From Candidatus Woesearchaeota archaeon (GTDB taxonomy: Archaea; Nanobdellota; Nanobdellia; SCGC-AAA011-G17; JACQNH01), in contig JAHFIJ010000001.1 of the NCBI GenBank assembly GCA_023246445.1, forward strand, positions 1 to 58,730: a stretch of 58,730 bases of DNA, given 5' to 3'. The position numbers and the translations under genes are program-made. The notes beneath the pieces were generated by a model, which worked only from the letters and a program-made list of their open reading frames with translations, was not told the DNA's origin and did not search any database. Each line of letters begins with the position of its first letter. Position 1 is the stretch's first letter. Positions 3,701 through 58,374 of this stretch are shown here, one piece after another.

Positions 3701-4510
3701 CTATTTCCTAAATAAGTCTCTTCTAATCTCATATGCCTTTTCAGCATCTTTCAGGATTTTTGTATCAATTTCTTGTATAAACATCTCTTCTTTATTATGG
3801 TTTAATCTTTTTATTACTCCCTTAAATGGCTCAGTTATCTGCGAACAGCCTACAGAATTATTTCTTCCATCAAGAGACTTGCCGGCTGTATTGCAGAACA
3901 CTAAAATTATTTCTTCTTCAAATGCCCTTTCAACACATAAAGAATTAACAGCCTTAACCTCTGAATTTTTATCATATTTTAAGCCCTCTCCTGCATCCTG
4001 ATAGCTCCAATTCGCAGGGCACAATATTAACTCCACGCCTTTCTTTTTCAATGCTCTAAAAATCTCCGGAAATATTAAATCCCAGCAGATAATTAAGCCT
4101 ATTCTTCCATGTTTCGTATTTATTATTGTTATATGCCTTCCTCTTTTTATCAGCCTTTTTTCAGTTGACCATAAATGTTCTTTCCTGTATTTTCCCCTCA
4201 CCTTTCCATTTGCATCAAAATAATAAGTGGTATTATATTTTTTCCCATTATATAATTCAATTATTGAACCAGCAAGAATCGAAATAGAATACTTTTTAGA
4301 CAATTCCTTTATCTTACTTAAGCAGTTTTTATCCGAAATAATAAACTTTTTTTCGAGAGAGCAGTTTCTTGACAAAAAAACCTCGGGGAATACAATCAAA
4401 TCTGCTCTTGATTTTGATGCTGTCTTAATAAATTTTTCTGCATACTCAAGATTATTTTCAGGCAATAATTCTCTAGTCTTAAACTGGACTACTGCAATAC
4501 GAATTTTCAT
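3701..4510 (-). CDS. carbon-nitrogen hydrolase (nitrilase superfamily)
   Basis: 269 aa with a Glu-Lys-Cys triad context: VFPEVF, YRKEHLW, LIICWDL. Confidence 0.8.
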   Translation of the reverse strand: MKIRIAVVQFKTRELLPENNLEYAEKFIKTASKSRADLIVFPEVFLSRNCSLEKKFIISDKNCLSKIKELSKKYSISILAGSIIELYNGKKYNTTYYFDANGKVRGKYRKEHLWSTEKRLIKRGRHITIINTKHGRIGLIICWDLIFPEIFRALKKKGVELILCPANWSYQDAGEGLKYDKNSEVKAVNSLCVERAFEEEIILVFCNTAGKSLDGRNNSVGCSQITEPFKGVIKRLNHNKEEMFIQEIDTKILKDAEKAYEIRRDLFRK

Positions 4511-4551
4511 TATATTAAGCAGGAATTTCCATTATTAAATGTTTTCAAATT

Positions 4552-5250
4552 TCAACAAGGCTCGCTTAAGACTTCAAAACTACAGCCTAATTGTTTATCA
4601 GCCTCTTCTTCTATACTAAATCCAACAATCACACCTATATCATCAAATTCTCTTTTAAGTTTTTCCTCTTCAGAATTTGTAAGCCTCATTCCACAAAATT
4701 CTTCTTCAGGATTTCTCAGTCTATTTTTAGTGCTGCTATGAGAATCCAGATTTACAGCTCTTATCTTATAGCCTATAATATCGTTGCCGCTTAACAGATT
4801 AAACTTTATCTTCCAATCACCATAACTTTCTCCATAATTATTTAAATTTACGCCGCAGGTTACTAATTTCTTTGCACATACAGTCTTTTTCTTAACACAT
4901 AATCCTAGTAAATATTTTAAACATCCATCTTTAGTTTCAACACAATCAGTCTTAACACTCAAATCTGTTATTGTATACTCTTTATTTTCACATTTATTAA
5001 TTTCAGAATCCAAACAATCAGGATAAATTTCTAAAGAATTATCAATAGCCGCATAACCTGTTGGCATCACCATAGCATAAATCACAACACCCCACATCAA
5101 TACAGCAATAATTATCAATATTACAGCAACGCTAATGACTAATTTAGGAACCCTATTGCTTTTAATTTTTTTCTTGATAATCTTTTTACCACAAAATTTG
5201 CAAAACTTAGAACCGGATTCAATATTCCCCCCACATTTAGAACATTTCAT
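4552..5250 (-). CDS. zinc-ribbon membrane-anchored protein, function unknown
   Basis: N-terminal CxxC...CxxC (MKCSKCGG...CKFCGKK), one TM helix, then a Cys-containing extracytoplasmic domain. Confidence 0.5.
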   Translation of the reverse strand: MKCSKCGGNIESGSKFCKFCGKKIIKKKIKSNRVPKLVISVAVILIIIAVLMWGVVIYAMVMPTGYAAIDNSLEIYPDCLDSEINKCENKEYTITDLSVKTDCVETKDGCLKYLLGLCVKKKTVCAKKLVTCGVNLNNYGESYGDWKIKFNLLSGNDIIGYKIRAVNLDSHSSTKNRLRNPEEEFCGMRLTNSEEEKLKREFDDIGVIVGFSIEEEADKQLGCSFEVLSEPC

Positions 5251-6519: not shown

Positions 6520-6638
6520 GAGGACGACCATAGGAGCTTGGCCCTACCTGATCCCATTTCGAACTCAGAAGTAAAACAGGCTTCCGTTCCAAGTGTGTAT
6601 TGCTCTTTTGAGTGAGAAGCTTGGGAAGTTGTCCCACC
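6520..6638 (+). rRNA. 5S ribosomal RNA, stand-alone
   Basis: GC-rich island with a 5S core (GCCCUACCUGAUCCCAUUUCGAACUCAGAAGUAAAAC). The terminal helix pairs GGACGAC with GUUGUCC. TATA TTTATAAA lies at 6491-6498 and a T-run follows directly. Ends are good to about 3 nt. Confidence 0.85.
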
Positions 6639-17524: not shown

Positions 17525-17674
17525 AACAATGCAGGCTGTCCCGCAATTACAAAAAATGTATACTGGCAACATCCCCCAATTGCTAATCTTACAAAAAAGG
17601 TCGTGCCAAAATGCAAAACAAGAGATGAGTGGGCAAAAATAATTATGTGACAGCCTGAGGAATTTAACGGAAAC
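17525..17674. repeat. 150-bp direct repeat, copy 1
   Basis: Aligns without gaps to 19542-19691 with about 16 mismatches. The central 107 nt has only 3 mismatches. Confidence 0.85.
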
Positions 17675-17880
17675 CTCGTTGCAGTTTGGTTTCCCAAATT
17701 TCTTCCGTTTCGCTCTAGAAACTTCTGTTAATGCCGGTGTTATCAGCAATAGGATTTTCAATTTACCGACGAAAAAAAGTCAGAAGCACCCCCACCACCT
17801 CGCACTCGTTTTGCTCGTGCGAAAAAAAACAAAACGAAAAACAAAGATTTATAAATATGTTCTGAAATGCATATATTAAG

Positions 17881-19371
17881 ATGAATAAAAAATTTATTTT
17901 AACATTTCTTTTAGTATTTGTATTAGCGAGTTTTGTTTCTGCTGCGGAAAATCCGATGATTCTCCGAACTATCAAAGAAATAAAGTCTGTAAATCCTTCT
18001 GATGTCGCTAATTTAGGAATTGGTGTTTACCAAATAAGTGCACAATATAATTTAGGTTCTTATCAACAAGGGCAGTGGATGGGTTTTGAAAATAAAAATT
18101 GTGAAGACTTAAAAATTGGTGCAGTTTGGGTTGAGTTCTCATGGGAAAGGCCAGAAACAAACGTTGTTCTAACTGATGGTGCTGGAAATGAAAGAAAAAT
18201 TTATTTGTCTGCTTCAACTCCTGCTGGAAATTCTACTTATGGGGAATATTACTGGATTGCCGAAGATGGTTCTAGTTATTACGCAAATAGCAATCACGGG
18301 CATGGATGGCCTGATTTAATTTATAAACAAGCATTAGTTCCAGAACATCTAGCAAGAACATCTCTTTCACCAGAACAGAAAAATCCTGCAACTGAAGAAC
18401 CTTTAACATGTGGCGTAGGAAATAATATCATAAAATTAAAAGGTCAATTGGTTGACCAAATGACAAACACTCCAATAGGTAGTGCAAAATTAAATAGCGC
18501 TTACGAATTTTCCCCTAAAGAAGTTATAACGGATAGCAATGGAAATTTTGAATTTACGGTAAGTTCAGATTATATGGGTTCGTGGACTTTTCTAGATAAT
18601 TGTCATGGCTGGTCTGGGAATATTGGATTACAAAAGGATTATCAAGTATGGGGAAATGGACAATTAGAACAGACTTATAAATTAGCTTTAATAAAAGAAA
18701 AATTTGATTCTCAACCTAATGTTCAAGATGTTTTTGGGCAGAGTGAAATAGATATGGGTAAAGTCTATGCTTATCCAAACGCAGATATTTCAATAGAATC
18801 AGATTTATCTGCTAGTTTTGATGTGATGTATAAGTTAAAAAATAGCGAGGGATATAATGGGGGTGGAAATTCTAATTTCAGAGAAGAACATTATTTAACA
18901 GGTGCATTGCCATTGAATTATGATGTTTTTATTCAATTTAAAGACCAAAATGGTGCAGTGCATAAGTCTGCAACATATAATATTCCTAATGACGCAATGT
19001 GTGGAGTTGTAAGCTTAAAATACTTTAATGGAGAATCACAATGGTCTATTCTATCCAAAGTTGAGCCTAGTGAAGAAACAGGACCAATACAAATAGATAT
19101 TCCAGAAACTGTTAAAGAAGAAAATCCACAAGTAATTTCAAATCTTTGTTATGGTTGTTTAAAAGAAACTACTTGCTATCCTCTTGGATACAGAAAGGGT
19201 GGAGAGTTTTGTTCGGAAGGTAAAACATTTGTATTTCAATCACAATCAGATTCGGTATGTGATAATAACTTTGAATGTTCTTCAAATGTTTGTGTTTCTG
19301 GAAAATGTATTTCTGAAGGATTTATTCAGAAAATTCTTAATTGGTTTAAAAGATTATTTGGTGCTGACTAA
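17881..19371 (+). CDS. secreted protein, function unknown, with C-terminal Cys-rich knot
   Basis: 496 aa. Signal peptide MNKKFILTFLLVFVLASFVSAAE. C-terminal CYGCLKETTC...CDNNFECSSNVCVSGKC. Confidence 0.6.
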   Translation: MNKKFILTFLLVFVLASFVSAAENPMILRTIKEIKSVNPSDVANLGIGVYQISAQYNLGSYQQGQWMGFENKNCEDLKIGAVWVEFSWERPETNVVLTDGAGNERKIYLSASTPAGNSTYGEYYWIAEDGSSYYANSNHGHGWPDLIYKQALVPEHLARTSLSPEQKNPATEEPLTCGVGNNIIKLKGQLVDQMTNTPIGSAKLNSAYEFSPKEVITDSNGNFEFTVSSDYMGSWTFLDNCHGWSGNIGLQKDYQVWGNGQLEQTYKLALIKEKFDSQPNVQDVFGQSEIDMGKVYAYPNADISIESDLSASFDVMYKLKNSEGYNGGGNSNFREEHYLTGALPLNYDVFIQFKDQNGAVHKSATYNIPNDAMCGVVSLKYFNGESQWSILSKVEPSEETGPIQIDIPETVKEENPQVISNLCYGCLKETTCYPLGYRKGGEFCSEGKTFVFQSQSDSVCDNNFECSSNVCVSGKCISEGFIQKILNWFKRLFGAD

Positions 19372-19541
19372 AATAAATCTTTGTTTTTCCTTGCCCACCC
19401 CAAACCCCAACATAGTAGGGGAGTTTCTGACTAAAAAGTTAGCTTCCTTCGGAAGATTATTTATAATTAAAATTGAAAATTCTACTTTCCCCCTTCGGTC
19501 GAACCCTGTCTTACAGCCTTTCGCTCCGCTCACCCAGACAT

Positions 19542-19691
19542 AACAGCGCAGGTTACCCCGCAATTACCAAAAATGTATACTGGCAACATCGCCCGATTGC
19601 TAATCTTACAAAAAAGGTCGTGCCAAAATGCAAAACAAGAGATGAGTGGGCAAAAATAATTATGGAACAGCCTGAATGTTTAAACGAAAAC
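19542..19691. repeat. 150-bp direct repeat, copy 2
   Basis: See 17525-17674. Lies between the secreted-protein gene stop and the dnaJ stop. Confidence 0.85.
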
Positions 19692-43561: not shown

Positions 43562-44644
43562 ATGAAAACAATTTTAAAAATCATCTTCGGGATTATGATC
43601 TTTCTTTTAATTAGTTGTAACAATACAGAACAAGAAACAATTAAAATAGGCGCAATTGTTCCATTAAGTGATTGGGGGGCTTATTGGGGTATCCCATTCA
43701 TAAAGGGTGCAGAAATCGCCAAAGAAGAAATCAACAGCAACAATAAAATCAAATTTGAGATAATTACCGAAGACAGTAAAGGTAATGGAAAAGATGCGGT
43801 AACAGCCGTCCAAAAACTAATAAATATCGATAAAGTAAAAGCTATAGTTGTAGAATTCGCACCACCCACTCTAGCAGTTTCCCCTATACTAAAGGAAGCC
43901 AAAATTCCATTTATCTATGATGCTTATATAAAATCGCCCCTCAAAGACAACAAATATGCCTTCAAATCATTTCTTGATGTTAAAATCGGATGTAAAGATT
44001 TAATAAAACACGCAAAAGAAAGTTACAAAAATCTAGGTTTAATATTAGCAAAAATGGAATATAGTGAAATATGTTTAGACGCTGTCAAAGAAATCGAACC
44101 AGCTGTAAATGTTTATTGGTATACTTTTGGAGACACAGATTTCAGAACTTTACTAATAAAAGCGAAAAGCGATAAGATTGATACTATCCTTATCTTAGGA
44201 TGGGCAAATGAATTCACCGCTTTTTTCCAGCAAAAAACAGAATTAGGTTATAAGTTTAATATCCTCTGTGGTAGTGGATCAGAATGTCTAAATGATGATG
44301 TAATCAATTTAATTCCAAAAGAAGAATTAGAAGGAACAATCGCATTTGATTATACTGCTTTAACAGATACTAGTTTCGCAAGAGAATATAAAGAAAAATA
44401 TCCGGATACAACTACACCAAACATTATTGCAGCGGTCCATGGTTACGAATCTATTATCTTATTTAGTGAAGCTGTAAAAAATTGCAATGAAATAACTTCA
44501 GAGTGTATTCAAGAAAATTTAAACAATGTTAGAGAATACCCTAGTGCATTAAAAAGTAATGGTTTTAAAGACAGAGTTTTACAAATTGAAACAGAACTTT
44601 ACGAATTTAAAAACGCAAAATTAACAGAAATTAAACAACCCTAA
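43562..44644 (+). CDS. periplasmic-binding-protein type I solute-binding lipoprotein (LivJ-like)
   Basis: 360 aa. Signal peptide with LLISC lipobox-like Cys. IKIGAIVPLSDWGAYWG is typical of Peripla_BP_6. Confidence 0.7.
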   Translation: MKTILKIIFGIMIFLLISCNNTEQETIKIGAIVPLSDWGAYWGIPFIKGAEIAKEEINSNNKIKFEIITEDSKGNGKDAVTAVQKLINIDKVKAIVVEFAPPTLAVSPILKEAKIPFIYDAYIKSPLKDNKYAFKSFLDVKIGCKDLIKHAKESYKNLGLILAKMEYSEICLDAVKEIEPAVNVYWYTFGDTDFRTLLIKAKSDKIDTILILGWANEFTAFFQQKTELGYKFNILCGSGSECLNDDVINLIPKEELEGTIAFDYTALTDTSFAREYKEKYPDTTTPNIIAAVHGYESIILFSEAVKNCNEITSECIQENLNNVREYPSALKSNGFKDRVLQIETELYEFKNAKLTEIKQP

Positions 44645-45347
44645 AATAAACTCTTTTCCTTCCTTTGCCTTTATTTTCAGCATCTACAAACTCCAATCTT
44701 CCAATCTCCTTTAAAGATTTAACATGTGTTCCGCCATCAGCCTGTATGTCTACTCTCTCAATTTCAGTAATTCTATACTCCTCTAAATCCTTAGGCAGTT
44801 TATCTTTTAATTTAAACAAACCAGGGTTTTTCATAGCTTCATCTTTTTTAATAAAATAATTATTCACTTTAGCATCAGTCTTTATTATTTCATTTACTTC
44901 CTGTATCCATTTAATAAAAGCCTCTTTATCAAAATTTTCTAAGCTTAAATCCAATCTTGACTTATCCTCACTAATCTGATTCCCGGTAATTAAAGCCCCT
45001 GAATGTTTATTTATTGTAGAGATTAACAAATGCATTGCAGTATGATACCTCATAAACATATATCTTCTATTCCAGTTTAATATACATTTAACTTTATCTC
45101 CTTTCTGTAAGCCTTCTTCACTGGCTTCATGAGAAACTTCCTCATTAAAAACTCCAACAAAAACAACATTAAATTCCTTATTATCTTTTAATCTGATAAT
45201 TTTCCCGGTATCAAATGGCTGCCCGCCTCCTTGAGCGTAAAATATAGTTTTTTCCAACACAACATATTTTCCATTAGCAGATTTTACTTCAGTCTCTACT
45301 TCTTTAAGATATGAATCCTTTAAATACAATAAATTTTCCGTATTCAT
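44631..45347 (-). CDS. alaX: alanyl-tRNA editing protein AlaX
   Basis: 238 aa. HTAMHLL and DGGTHV zinc-binding motifs. Confidence 0.85.
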   Translation of the reverse strand: MNTENLLYLKDSYLKEVETEVKSANGKYVVLEKTIFYAQGGGQPFDTGKIIRLKDNKEFNVVFVGVFNEEVSHEASEEGLQKGDKVKCILNWNRRYMFMRYHTAMHLLISTINKHSGALITGNQISEDKSRLDLSLENFDKEAFIKWIQEVNEIIKTDAKVNNYFIKKDEAMKNPGLFKLKDKLPKDLEEYRITEIERVDIQADGGTHVKSLKEIGRLEFVDAENKGKGRKRVYFRVV

Positions 45348-45405
45348 TTTTATTTTTTCAGATTTTTTTCTTTCACCAATCTCTCTTTTGTAAAAATAAA
45401 TATTG

Positions 45406-45538
45406 AGGGCCTACTGGGACTTTCAGCGTTTTTTCTTTCAACCTTTCTTTACGAGGTTTCTTTTTTAAAGAAAACTCTTTTGAACCCAGATCACCCGGTC
45501 CGAGGCCGGAGGCTCGATCCAGATTAAGCTATAGGCCC
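45406..45538 (-). tRNA. tRNA-Arg(UCG) candidate interrupted by a ~59-nt intron in the T-loop
   Basis: Minus strand: acceptor GGGCCUA/UAGGCCC, D arm GCUU-AAUCUGGAUC-GAGC, anticodon arm UCCGG-CCUCGGA-CCGGG. The T stem CUGGG...CCCAG is separated by 66 nt that begins UUCAAA. TATA TTTAAAAA lies ~25 nt upstream and a T-run follows. No encoded CCA. Confidence 0.8.
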
Positions 45539-45584
45539 TTCAAAAATCTTTAGGATTTAATCTTTTTAAATTCTTCTACCCTAA

Positions 45585-47498
45585 TTAAAATAACTCTTCA
45601 AAAAACCCTATAACCCTTAGATACCAGGGAACCCCACTAACATTAACATCAAACTCTTTATTTAAATTATATTTATTTCCTGATTCATCCTTAAATTCAA
45701 TCCCGATATCTGCATTCCCACTATATACTGTTCTGCCGCTTAAATTCCCCTTTATAACATTTATTCCATCAAACTCTTTAATATTGCTGAAATCAGCACC
45801 ATTTACCTTAATCTTTAAATCATTAATTTTTGTATTAGAGCTTAGAACAATATCAGTAGTTTTAATTTCATTATAATTTAAATTTTCAACATTGAATTCA
45901 GAGATCACAACACTAGGAATTTTATTTATTTTTATATCTAAATATTCTTTCTTAAAAAATTCATTATTCTCGGCAGTTATCAATAATCCATTAACATTAT
46001 TTTTAAAATCAACACTAAAATCAATATCTAAACTTTTATTCATATTAACTAATTTACAATCATCAATCAAACAAAAATTAACATTTTTATAACCTTCGTT
46101 GCTTGTAATTAAGCATTTAATCACTCCAGTTTCATTCCCTAAATAACTATTTTTATTTCCATTGCAACTAAAATTTAAAGAACTAAATTCACTTTTCTTT
46201 TCTCTCTTATCAACAGCTTTTAAAAACTCTAATGCCTTATCTAAGCTGTAATCTTCATAATCCTTAGCAGCCTGAATTAAAAAAATTGCTGAATCATCAA
46301 ACTGATCCTTAACCTTAACTTCACTGGAATAAATAAAATCTTCTTTTAAATTTCCTTTAAATTCTGCAATAAATACCAAATTTTTCTTTTCTTTTGGTTT
46401 TAATACTATTATTTTCTCTGAAACCCCATAAACACCAGGCGCATTAGCTAAATACAGCATTGCACTTAGATAAGAATCTTCTAAATTTTCTACTTCAACA
46501 ATTATTGGAGCATAACTTTCAAATTTAACTCTCTGAACAACAGATCTTGCACTAATCTTAATTGGGCTCTTAAAATCATCTTTTTTTTCGTTTATATAAT
46601 AAGCATTCAAATCTATCTTATCTAATTTTACTTCACCCCCGACAGAATGCCATCTATAATTTACACTGGCCTCTCCAGACCCTGCAGTATGCTGCAATTT
46701 CACATGGCTCGGATCTATCCATCCATATTGTCCAAATGTGACATCAAATGGCACCCAGCCATAACCGGGAAAATAAACCTCACTCCATCCATGATTTAAC
46801 CATTTATATCCTAAATTCGTGTAAACAACACCAGTAACAAATCTTGCAGGAATCCCTAAACTTCTCATTAAAGAGATAAATAAATTAGTTATCTCATCAC
46901 AAACACCCTCCCCATTCCTCAAAACTTCGCTGCTCTTAAAAACAGTTTCAGCATTTATCGTGCTTAGATTATATTTTATGTTTCTTCTCACCCATTCAGC
47001 AGTCTTAACAGCAATCAAAAACAAATCATCGCTATCCACTAAATCTCTTGCTGTATTTCTTATATCTTCATTTATGTCTATATATTTGCTTTCACCCAAA
47101 TACTCCTTATTACCATCAAAAACCACAGGATATTTAACCTTCTTATCTATCTTAAAAAGAATATTCTTATTTACTATTTCAGTCTTTAGATTAGCAGTCA
47201 CAATTTCAGATTTCGGATATCTCCATGCATATCTTATTAATCCTGGTTTTTCATTTTTTTCCCCTTCAGGATTCATTTCTAATTCAAAACTTTTTATTGT
47301 TTGCCTGTAATTAACCTCAGGTTTTAAAAACAAATCCGCAGTTAGATCATTCATTTTAGTTTTATCTAAATTATACAGCTTAAAATTTAAATTAATATCG
47401 AGTCCAATATTTAACTCATTAACATTGTTATAATTTTCAGCAGAAAAGACTAGCTGAGGCATTAAAACAACCAATACTAACAAGATTAACTTTCGCAC
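45585..47498 (-). CDS. secreted transglutaminase-like cysteine protease-fold protein
   Basis: 637 aa with a signal peptide. GEGVCDEITNLFISLMRSLGIPARFVTG (Cys), HGWSEVYF (His), GWVPFDVT (Asp). Confidence 0.8.
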   Translation of the reverse strand: MRKLILLVLVVLMPQLVFSAENYNNVNELNIGLDINLNFKLYNLDKTKMNDLTADLFLKPEVNYRQTIKSFELEMNPEGEKNEKPGLIRYAWRYPKSEIVTANLKTEIVNKNILFKIDKKVKYPVVFDGNKEYLGESKYIDINEDIRNTARDLVDSDDLFLIAVKTAEWVRRNIKYNLSTINAETVFKSSEVLRNGEGVCDEITNLFISLMRSLGIPARFVTGVVYTNLGYKWLNHGWSEVYFPGYGWVPFDVTFGQYGWIDPSHVKLQHTAGSGEASVNYRWHSVGGEVKLDKIDLNAYYINEKKDDFKSPIKISARSVVQRVKFESYAPIIVEVENLEDSYLSAMLYLANAPGVYGVSEKIIVLKPKEKKNLVFIAEFKGNLKEDFIYSSEVKVKDQFDDSAIFLIQAAKDYEDYSLDKALEFLKAVDKREKKSEFSSLNFSCNGNKNSYLGNETGVIKCLITSNEGYKNVNFCLIDDCKLVNMNKSLDIDFSVDFKNNVNGLLITAENNEFFKKEYLDIKINKIPSVVISEFNVENLNYNEIKTTDIVLSSNTKINDLKIKVNGADFSNIKEFDGINVIKGNLSGRTVYSGNADIGIEFKDESGNKYNLNKEFDVNVSGVPWYLRVIGFFEELF

Positions 47499-48532
47499 CC
47501 CTTATTCACCTCTTCTTTTACAACTTTAAAAAATTTATCCCAATCATCTTTCGCTATATTAAAGCCGCATGCATTCTTATGCCCCCCACCATAACTTCCA
47601 TTGCTTAAGCCTTCTAATGATTTACTAATCACCGGCTGCAAATTTATATTTCTGCTTCTCAAACTCCCTTTTACAAACTCCCCTGTATCTCTCCCAACTA
47701 ATATAACTTCCATCCCTGTTGAATATTTTAAAAACTGCGCCAGCTCAGAAGAAAAACTTATCTTCCCCGAAGGATAAATAAACCACAATAAATTTTTTTC
47801 TTTCTTCATATTGTCTAACGCTTTTTTTAATAATTCCTCATACTGCTCGTTTATTCTTAAAAATTTATTCTTTAGCTGTTCGCATCTATCTTCAAAATCT
47901 AAAATATCATAAGGGCTTTTAACCTGCTCCAAAACATTAGCTATGTCCATTACATCTCTGACTTTTGATTTCAATAAAAAACTTACTATCTTTATTATTC
48001 TCCCTAATTTGCTGTTATAGATTAAATCCTCTTCACCCTTAAAATCATTAAACAATTCTTTATATTCTTTTCTGACATCTTCTAGAAAATCAGGTATATA
48101 ATAATCAGCCACGCACCCAATTAATGCCAGCCATTTATCTCTATTAACACATTTATAGCTCCAGTATGTTGTAGCGCTTCTTTCATTTGGATTTTTAAAT
48201 TTCGGATTAAAATATTTCATATTTTCAATTTCAATTATAGGATGATGATCAATCCATATTACCGGAGCTTTACAGTTATCAATGAATTCCTGTTCTATTA
48301 TAGGTTTATCTAAAACAATTATAAGATCAGGATTATACTTATTTGCTATTAGAGCATATTTTTTTCCAACTTTAGGGGAATCTTTCACAACTCTCCCATT
48401 TCCTTTTTTACAATATCTTTTAAATAATAAATAACTGCACAACCCATCACAATCTTCATCAAATAAAAAAAATGGATTTTCACTTTTATCCAATAGTTTC
48501 TTGACTTCATTTAATTCTATTATCTTAGCCAT
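47486..48532 (-). CDS. DHH/DHHA1-family phosphoesterase (RecJ/NrnA-like)
   Basis: 348 aa. DEDCDGLCS, IWIDHHPI and GGGHKNACGF motifs. Confidence 0.75.
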   Translation of the reverse strand: MAKIIELNEVKKLLDKSENPFFLFDEDCDGLCSYLLFKRYCKKGNGRVVKDSPKVGKKYALIANKYNPDLIIVLDKPIIEQEFIDNCKAPVIWIDHHPIIEIENMKYFNPKFKNPNERSATTYWSYKCVNRDKWLALIGCVADYYIPDFLEDVRKEYKELFNDFKGEEDLIYNSKLGRIIKIVSFLLKSKVRDVMDIANVLEQVKSPYDILDFEDRCEQLKNKFLRINEQYEELLKKALDNMKKEKNLLWFIYPSGKISFSSELAQFLKYSTGMEVILVGRDTGEFVKGSLRSRNINLQPVISKSLEGLSNGSYGGGHKNACGFNIAKDDWDKFFKVVKEEVNKGCES

Positions 48533-48578
48533 TAAAAATTTAATTAAAAATTGAGTTTAAAATAGTTTTGATTGAATT

Positions 48579-49148
48579 TTAACGTGCCTTTTGTTTATTT
48601 GCTCTTAAACTGGGTCTTATCTTCTCAGCACCCTTCCCTTTATTCCTTAACCCTCTTGATTTTCTCCCGGCAGAAGTTTTTCCCCTGTAAACTCTCCCTC
48701 TTGACTCATTTATCCATTCCATCCCTTTATACTTTGAAACCTTAACTCTGTCTGCTAGTATAATCTCAAACCAGTTATAAATTCCATCCTGAATAACAAA
48801 ATAACTCCCCAATACTTCACAATTAGGATATTTATTATTTACTCTCTCCTCTGCAATCCACTGATAATTTTTGCTTACGCTTCTATGAACATAATAATTT
48901 CTTGATTTTCTGCCTCTTTTTAATTGTGGCCTCTGTTTTCCGCCTCTTTTCAATCTTATTCTTACAACTAAATATCCCTCTTTAGCCTTATAACCTAAAG
49001 CTCTAGCTCGGTCTAATCTAGTCGGGTTATCAATTCTTAAAAAAACAGGCTGTCTCCTGAACTTCATTAATCTCTCCTTATATATCTGAGGATTTAATTC
49101 TCTTAAATTCTGCCAGTTTTCTCTGATAAAGGAATATGCGCTTTTCAT
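48579..49148 (-). CDS. rpl15e: 50S ribosomal protein L15e
   Basis: MKSAYSFIRENWQN...RLDRARALGYKAKEGYLVVRIRLKRGG. Start set at the second Met (49148) because the TATA-like TTATAAAT overlaps the first ATG (49172), which suggests a leaderless mRNA. Confidence 0.9.
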   Translation of the reverse strand: MKSAYSFIRENWQNLRELNPQIYKERLMKFRRQPVFLRIDNPTRLDRARALGYKAKEGYLVVRIRLKRGGKQRPQLKRGRKSRNYYVHRSVSKNYQWIAEERVNNKYPNCEVLGSYFVIQDGIYNWFEIILADRVKVSKYKGMEWINESRGRVYRGKTSAGRKSRGLRNKGKGAEKIRPSLRANKQKAR

Positions 49149-58150: not shown

Positions 58151-58374
58151 TCCCCATGCCCCGTCTGCCAATAATAATGTCTTAAATCTTCTTCAGATAA
58201 ACTTGCTTCAAAACTTGGAAAGTAACTTTCTCTTGAAGAGATAGGATAAACCAGTTTATCTTCTAATCTTCCTCCATTCCCCCCTCTTTGTCTACTATCA
58301 GCACGATTTCTGTCGTTTAAATCCCCCCTCGCCAAATACACCCAACTCAATTCAACACCACTATTGTCTCCCAT
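58147..58374 (-). CDS. small hypothetical protein
   Basis: 75 aa. AGGAGG lies 7 nt upstream of the ATG. Gly/Arg-rich middle. Its 3' end overlaps the convergent alaS by 4 nt. Confidence 0.4.
   Translation of the reverse strand: MGDNSGVELSWVYLARGDLNDRNRADSRQRGGNGGRLEDKLVYPISSRESYFPSFEASLSEEDLRHYYWQTGHGD

Follow-up and report, generated by a model that had tools for sequence, protein, structure and literature searches.

Introns between positions 59 and 60 of tRNA genes have been documented in ARMAN-2, a member of the DPANN archaea, and are cut in vitro by archaeal EndA (PMC3239211). Non-canonical and multiple tRNA introns are also known from the Thermoproteales (Sugahara et al., reviewed in PMC4033280). 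Disrupted tRNA genes and an alpha4 EndA with an L3 loop have been reported in DPANN archaea including Woesearchaeota and Pacearchaeota, and incompletely predicted tRNA sets have already been flagged for DPANN genomes (PMC5829648). Here we describe a tRNA-Arg(UCG) gene with an intron at position 59/60 in a 58,730-nt stretch of DNA from Candidatus Woesearchaeota archaeon (GCA_023246445.1, contig JAHFIJ010000001.1, positions 1-58,730), hereafter called the window; the source sequence is ~30% GC. This class of intron is already known, and the window gene adds one case to it; the one uncommon trait of the gene is a C at position 33.

Like the intron of ARMAN-2 tRNA-Cys, that of the window gene belongs to a DPANN archaeon, occupies the 59/60 site of the T-loop, is short and non-coding, and has a bulge-helix-bulge (BHB)-type motif on the T stem. 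The two genes differ in isoacceptor and intron length (59 nt in the Arg-UCG gene and 13 nt in tRNA-Cys) and in the motif, which is near-strict with both 3-nt bulges in the window but a relaxed hBH in ARMAN-2 tRNA-Cys; the host is of Woesearchaeota/Nanoarchaeota type, whereas ARMAN-2 has an epsilon2 EndA. With the canonical hBHBh' introns at 37/38, the window intron shares a 5-bp stem, a 4-bp helix in which the intron pairs with loop nucleotides one to four, and two 3-nt bulges. Both loops are of 7 nt with the cut after their sixth nucleotide, which makes 59/60 of the T-loop the exact counterpart of 37/38 of the anticodon loop. However, the window motif is formed in the T arm and not in the anticodon arm; the homologous gene of a close relative (L132, described below) bears both kinds of intron. 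The Thermoproteales introns likewise lie outside 37/38, are recognised through a BHB and are patchily distributed between related genomes, but they belong to another lineage, and the window intron gave no sign of transposition: no other copy of it was found in the window or in the 135 loci that we retrieved.

Structure of the interrupted gene

The gene lies on the minus strand at 45538..45406 and reads GGGCCUA-UA-GCUU-AAUCUGGAUC-GAGC-C-UCCGG-CCUCGGA-CCGGG-UGAU-CUGGG-UUCAAA-[59 nt]-U-CCCAG-UAGGCCC-U, with 66 nt between the T-stem halves CUGGG and CCCAG. The initial annotation had read these stems and their spacing in exactly this way, and had proposed a tRNA-Arg with anticodon UCG and an insert of about 59 nt in the T-loop. 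ARAGORN called no tRNA from the unspliced gene, or anywhere else in the 58.7-kb window, and Rfam returned no tRNA on the raw window at either the gathering threshold or E <= 1; the tRNA model RF00005 matched only the 5' 58 nt of the gene (45481-45538), where it scored 17.6 bits, the gathering score being 29. When positions 45478..45420 were deleted in silico, ARAGORN recognised the remaining 74 nt as a tRNA-Arg(tcg) in which the T-loop is UUCAAAU and none of the four stems is disrupted. The failure of both programs on the raw gene is thus due to the intron, whose length is exactly 59 nt, and the proposed gene, insert and anticodon were borne out.

The 5' exon (45479..45538, minus strand; 60 nt, tRNA positions 1-59) was delimited by the sequence, by splicing in silico with ARAGORN and by the partial Rfam match; it comprises the acceptor 5' strand, the D arm, the anticodon arm, a 4-nt variable loop, the T-stem 5' strand and UUCAAA (54-59). 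The intron (45420..45478, minus strand) was placed between tRNA positions 59 and 60 by splicing in silico, by the register of the BHB motif and by homology with L132. The 14-nt 3' exon (45406..45419, minus strand), read from the sequence and from splicing in silico, consists of U60, CCCAG, the acceptor strand UAGGCCC and the discriminator U73; CCA is not encoded. The exons are collinear, on one strand and 59 nt apart, and hence the gene is neither split nor permuted. The anticodon UCG (positions 34-36; 45501..45503, minus strand) lies in the loop C32-C33-U34-C35-G36-G37-A38. The cloverleaf has stems of 7, 4, 5 and 5 bp with U8, A14, G18 G19, G53, U54 U55 C56, A58 and C61.

Upstream of the gene we found a TATA-box-like element, UUUAAAAA, at -32 to -25 from tRNA position 1 (45563..45570, minus strand), which was read in the sequence and recovered in an alignment of syntenic relatives; it is conserved at these loci and is a presumed promoter box. 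A T-rich tract, TTTATTTTT, begins 6 nt past the discriminator (45392..45400, minus strand) and is likely to be an archaeal terminator.

A bulge-helix-bulge motif in the T arm

We enumerated all pairs of cut sites that restore a 7-nt T-loop and scored each for a BHB motif. Position 59/60 was the only register with a central helix H of 4/4 pairs, a 5-bp helix h and 3-nt bulges; every other register in the T-loop scored below it. The initial annotation had placed the insert at or near 59/60 and had defined no BHB boundaries; the motif settles the site as exactly 59/60. The 5' strand of helix H is U54 U55 C56 A57 (45481..45484, minus strand), which pairs with UGAA, intron nucleotides 54-57 (45422..45425, minus strand), as seen by register enumeration and folding and in the comparison of 19 genes described below. 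The helix is bounded on opposite strands by the 5' bulge AAA, formed by A58, A59 and the first intron nucleotide (45478..45480, minus strand), and by the 3' bulge AGU, formed by intron A and G and by U60 (45419..45421, minus strand). From the known BHB rule, cleavage is predicted at 45479/45478 and 45420/45419. Helix h is the 5-bp T stem, and h' consists of a G-C pair, an A.G mismatch, and then a G-C and four U-A pairs. With a single G-C pair before the mismatch, h' is weak in the window, and the motif is probably short of a strict hBHBh', which calls for at least 2 bp in each of h and h'; h' of L132 has two contiguous pairs.

When the cloverleaf stems were set as a constraint, the BHB fold had a free energy of -35.7 kcal/mol and the best alternative -35.8 kcal/mol, and the pairs of helix H had an ensemble probability of ~0.3 under the same constraint without protein. 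In this model the motif is accessible but not dominant when no protein is bound. Without constraints, the precursor took on a structure other than the cloverleaf at minimum energy; such misfolded minima are usual for AT-rich precursors. We also considered a C/D-box guide RNA within the intron, but no C box (RUGAUGA) was found, and the sole CUGA belongs to helix H.

For cleavage, ligation and the enzymes involved, we infer the following course. Transcription of the gene would give a 133-nt precursor plus flanks, in which the 5-bp T stem would stack on the 4-bp helix between T-loop nucleotides U54-A57 and intron UGAA; with two 3-nt bulges flanking this helix, the T arm would take the role that the anticodon arm has for 37/38 introns. 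EndA would then cut once in each bulge, on the 3' side of A59 and on the 5' side of U60, an RNA ligase would join the exons into a 74-nt tRNA with the T-loop UUCAAAU, and CCA would be added after splicing. An epsilon2 or heterotetrameric EndA, which the initial annotation had expected, is not required by this substrate, since its 3-4-3 geometry and 5-bp h are canonical and only the weak h' departs from the standard; moreover, an alpha4 enzyme with an L3 loop is the form reported in Woesearchaeota and Pacearchaeota (PMC5829648). Pfam detected no tRNA_int_endo domain in the ~40 window ORFs scanned or among the precomputed labels of called neighbours; the 58.7-kb window yielded no gene for EndA, for a ligase or for any other part of the splicing machinery, and the neighbourhoods retrieved yielded none for EndA.

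Recurrence of 59/60 inserts in archaeal tRNA-Arg(UCG) genes

A pattern scan based on the anticodon arm and the start of the T-loop, using one genome per GTDB species, gave at least 119 matches, mostly from DPANN archaea, and 3' halves were assigned by requiring acceptor pairing. A tRNA-pattern scan of viral contigs gave no matches. Among the matches listed, 17 of ~113 archaeal tRNA-Arg(UCG) genes were interrupted at precisely 59/60, by inserts of 19-234 nt; this amounts to ~15% of the DPANN tRNA-Arg(UCG) genes sampled. Seven of the 17 carried Woesearchaeota/Nanoarchaeota labels (L013, L027, L029, L039, L049, L076 and L105), seven Micrarchaeota-type labels (L045, L059, L063, L070, L074, L095 and L116) and two Aenigmatarchaeota labels (L038 and L110); the remaining one came from an unclassified archaeon (L060). 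The initial annotation had described non-canonical sites as known mainly from the Thermoproteales and a few other lineages; this frequency among the matches listed and the 59/60 introns of ARMAN-2 (PMC3239211) speak against that emphasis on the Thermoproteales.

The 17 genes from the scan (among the matches listed), the window gene and L132 formed a set of 19 genes. Helix H was paired in 71 of 76 cells of this set, as compared with 19-42 of 76 when the 3' partner was slid by 1-3 nt. The pair 57:n-5 covaried, being A-U in nine genes and G-C in six (UUCA/UGAA versus UUCG/CGAA). The first h' pair was present in 16 of the 19 genes as four pair types (C-G, U-A, A-U and G-C), and the 3' bulge ended in U60 in all 19. 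These patterns lend comparative support, independent of the window, to a conserved motif at 59/60 that would be recognised by a protein.

Three further observations were made on the genes retrieved. Many Woesearchaeota/Nanoarchaeota tRNA-Arg(UCG) genes had inserts of 12-40 nt in the D-arm region (L005, L010, L011, L013, L023, L027, L029, L039, L041, L048, L050, L066, L105 and L113), and the distance from acceptor to anticodon stem in these genes was 39-68 nt instead of the usual 26-30; several also bear the 59/60 intron and are multi-intron genes. In seven loci (L122, L028, L069, L084, L085, L092 and L096), the last ~14 nt of the tRNA, that is, the T-stem 3' half and the acceptor 3' strand, were repeated 45-105 nt downstream, in tandem in L069; integrated elements may have left these repeats as att-like duplications, or they may serve as alternative 3' exons. 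The tRNA-Arg genes in many TPA_asm 'binchicken' records titled 'uncultured Methanosarcinales archaeon' (L008, L010, L018, L022, L025, L032, L039, L040 and others) were of DPANN type and lay between AT-rich flanks, and some of them had an intron in the T-loop or the D-loop; the taxonomic labels of these records look unreliable.

Intron content at the syntenic locus

The window gene sits between a Transglut_core gene and a gene for an AlaX-type editing protein. Relatives with AlaX proteins 79-92% identical, which carry Woesearchaeota/Nanoarchaeota labels, share with the window the gene order L15e, DHH, Transglut_core, [tRNA], (MazG-like), AlaX, PIN and ProRS, and a tRNA-Arg(UCG) gene occupies the same site in them behind a conserved TATA-like box. 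The gene occurs there in two forms. Type A (L124/L125, L127/L128, L129/L130 and L131; coordinates 9553-9624 in L124, 4900-4971 in L129 and 167-240 in L131) is intronless, with U33, the T-loop UUCGAAU and A or G as the discriminator. Type B (L132-L134, with AlaX 86% identical; the gene lies at 418-553 in L132) is the nearest homologue of the window gene and has the D arm, variable loop, T-loop and U73 in common with it. The 59/60 intron of L132 is 49 nt long and can be aligned with the window intron through UUUCUUU, AAACCUCG, AAGAAAAAA and UGAAAG. L132 has a second intron of 13 nt at the canonical 37/38 position, with a perfect BHB of its own (CUUC/GAAG), and it has U33.

Between the window gene and L132, 98% of structural cells were paired. 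The two genes differ by three compensatory double changes (7:66 A-U/G-C, 29:41 C-G/U-A and 50:64 U-A/C-G) and two one-sided G-U changes, and they have the first h' pair in opposite orientations (G-C in the window, C-G in L132). The compensatory changes and the swap in h' indicate that the gene has been evolving under selection for both the cloverleaf and the splice motif, and thus speak against a pseudogene.

The number of introns at this one syntenic locus is therefore none in type A, one in the window and two in L132-L134. The initial annotation had regarded the intron as a useful lineage marker; with close relatives (AlaX 79-92%) that are either intronless (L124, L125 and L127-L131) or two-intron (L132-L134), it is a poor one because of its patchy distribution and rapid turnover. 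The presence of two very different tRNA-Arg(UCG) genes at one site suggests rapid divergence or allelic replacement. Two observations concern the space upstream of AlaX. In L127, a 259-aa ORF of the LAGLIDADG_3 (homing-endonuclease) type lies between Transglut_core and tRNA-Arg (4116-4895) and, as called, extends over nucleotides 1-23 of the tRNA; in P0003, a co-occurring relative, the gap upstream of AlaX is 240 nt, as in the window.

Cytidine at position 33

U33 is a conserved, nearly universal nucleotide of tRNAs, though not a criterion for membership among them, and the window gene has C at this position (45504, minus strand). Other registers of the anticodon stem that would give U33 were tried by hand, and none of them paired. 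The C had already been noticed in the initial annotation as needing verification, and it was reproduced in a Logan contig (L136, run SRR14366766) that was separately assembled, spans 48998..45458 and is identical over the whole 5' exon, including C33; outside the exon, a single base (48482) distinguishes L136 from the window. A second contig from the same run (L001) reproduces 45461..44467 and with it the 3' exon and the adjoining end of the intron.

Among the pattern matches listed, C32-U33 was present in 115 of 119, and C32-C33 only in L046 (5367-5444), a tRNA-Arg(UCG) gene from a Methanocaldococcus sp. MAG with the loop C32-C33-UCG-G37-A38; C33 in tRNA-Arg(UCG) is thus not confined to DPANN archaea. 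An OTTR-seq paper does not mention C33 in Methanocaldococcus. A metagenome scan with C33 fixed yielded three more genes of DPANN-like sequence from JGI metagenomes (L121, L122 and L123), of which L121 and L123 both have C33 despite compensatory differences in the acceptor and T stems, and L122 is nearly identical to a U33 gene (L073). All credible ARAGORN tRNAs in the loci retrieved had U33 except the genes picked for C33. The syntenic relatives, including L132, have U33, and C33 is private to the window gene within its immediate clade. Judged from these contigs and genes, C33 is a real, rare and recurrent variant of tRNA-Arg(UCG) and not a read error.

The codons read by this tRNA are very rare: CGA (17) and CGG (4) account for 21 of 666 Arg codons among the 17,347 codons counted. 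Most likely, a tRNA for codons as rare as these tolerates C33, and relaxed selection is the simplest explanation for it. A more tentative reading, which we consider possible but do not favour, is that C33 in tRNA-Arg(UCG) has evolved repeatedly as a functional departure from the U33 rule of archaeal elongators, either used as C or edited from C to U. What speaks for it is that C33 occurs in five separate genes (window, L121/L123, L122 and the Methanocaldococcus MAG) and is kept by L121 and L123 through their compensatory changes. If used as C, the residue is perhaps harmless because m1G37 would block a C33-G37 pair; alternatively, the C may be converted to U within the anticodon loop by a type of editing not yet described. 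Eukaryotic initiator tRNAs also have C33. In archaea, the tRNA-Cys(GCA) of Sulfolobales has C33 with a G.U pair at 27:43 (PMC7668247). The window tRNA is likewise an archaeal elongator with C for U33 and has a wobble pair (U.G) at 27:43; however, the isoacceptor and the lineage are different, and its C33 is sporadic, whereas that of Sulfolobales is described as clade-wide.

Weighing of alternative explanations

We consider it very probable, from the sequence comparisons above, that the locus is a functional tRNA-Arg(UCG) gene of a DPANN host of Woesearchaeota/Nanoarchaeota type whose 59/60 intron is spliced by EndA-type cleavage at a BHB in the T arm. That the motif arose by chance is argued against by the canonical spliced product, by the BHB in the sole register that restores a 7-nt T-loop and by homologous genes with the same architecture. 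The gene nevertheless departs from its relatives at C33 and shares U73 with L132 only, and the rarity of its codons could mean that selection on it is weak. Carried further, these points would make it a decaying gene, in which the T-loop insertion is one lesion, C33 and U73 are two more, and CGA and CGG are served by a different tRNA-Arg; C33 is indeed found in only one of ~115 tRNA-Arg(UCG) genes among the matches listed, the other credible tRNAs of the loci have U33, and syntenic relatives carry an intronless U33 gene. Yet the four stems and the BHB are intact, the three compensatory double substitutions relative to L132 preserve pairing, the helix at the intron boundary covaries, and the gene occupies a conserved locus with its promoter box; U73, which L132 also has, is a trait of the clade and not damage. 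We therefore regard a pseudogene as improbable.

A true U33, with the C introduced by assembly or sequencing error or representing a minority variant, would agree with the U33 of L132 and all other syntenic relatives, and the C was read in consensus sequence only. This is unlikely, though somewhat less so than a pseudogene, given that the same C is present in the separately built L136, itself distinct from the window at one other base, and in four other distinct tRNA-Arg(UCG) genes (L121, L122, L123 and L046), with L121 and L123 retaining it despite compensatory changes. Hardly credible at all is an insert of another kind, either the remnant of a mobile element or integration event or a sequence kept in the mature RNA. 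It is true that the 3' halves of tRNA genes are common integration targets, that several related loci have duplicated tRNA 3' ends downstream, and that ARAGORN does not model such an insert; but this one is just 59 nt long and non-coding, lacks repeats of the flanking exons, has no second copy in the window or the 135 loci, and has ends that form a BHB in the exact register, with covariation across 19 genes. If retained, the resulting 66-nt T-loop would abolish the tertiary interaction between the D-loop and the T-loop.

Other features of the window

Apart from the tRNA gene, the window contains a 150-nt direct repeat (17525-17674 and 19542-19691, 89% identical) flanking a 496-aa ORF (17881-19371, plus strand) without a Pfam match, and a 20-nt inverted repeat (17833-17852 / 19373-19392) right at the ends of this ORF. 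Rfam gave no match here, and the predicted fold was weak (z = -1.1); the arrangement may represent a mobile cassette, or else a regulatory RNA that has been duplicated. Three non-coding islands (1439-1523, 19393-19585 and 58271-58334) are GC-rich (45-52%, against 30% in the genome) and contain short G+C hairpins, such as CAGCCC-UAAG-GGGCUG; they had no Rfam match and are candidates for unannotated structured RNAs. A 5S rRNA gene (6520-6637, plus strand; RF00001, 61 bits), the only gathering-level Rfam match in the window, is solitary, and its neighbours are a TyrRS/TrpRS-type gene and a large subtilase gene.

Significance

The practical consequence of these findings is mostly one for annotation: a gene of this kind is missed by standard tRNA finders, and the genome would seem to be without a decoder of CGA and CGG. 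For the DPANN archaea, our comparison marks position 59/60 of tRNA-Arg(UCG) as a recurrent intron site across several phyla, and intron content at a single syntenic locus as subject to fast turnover between close relatives. The repeated occurrence of C33 in one isoacceptor offers a natural test of the extent to which a tRNA for rare codons can do without the U-turn nucleotide.
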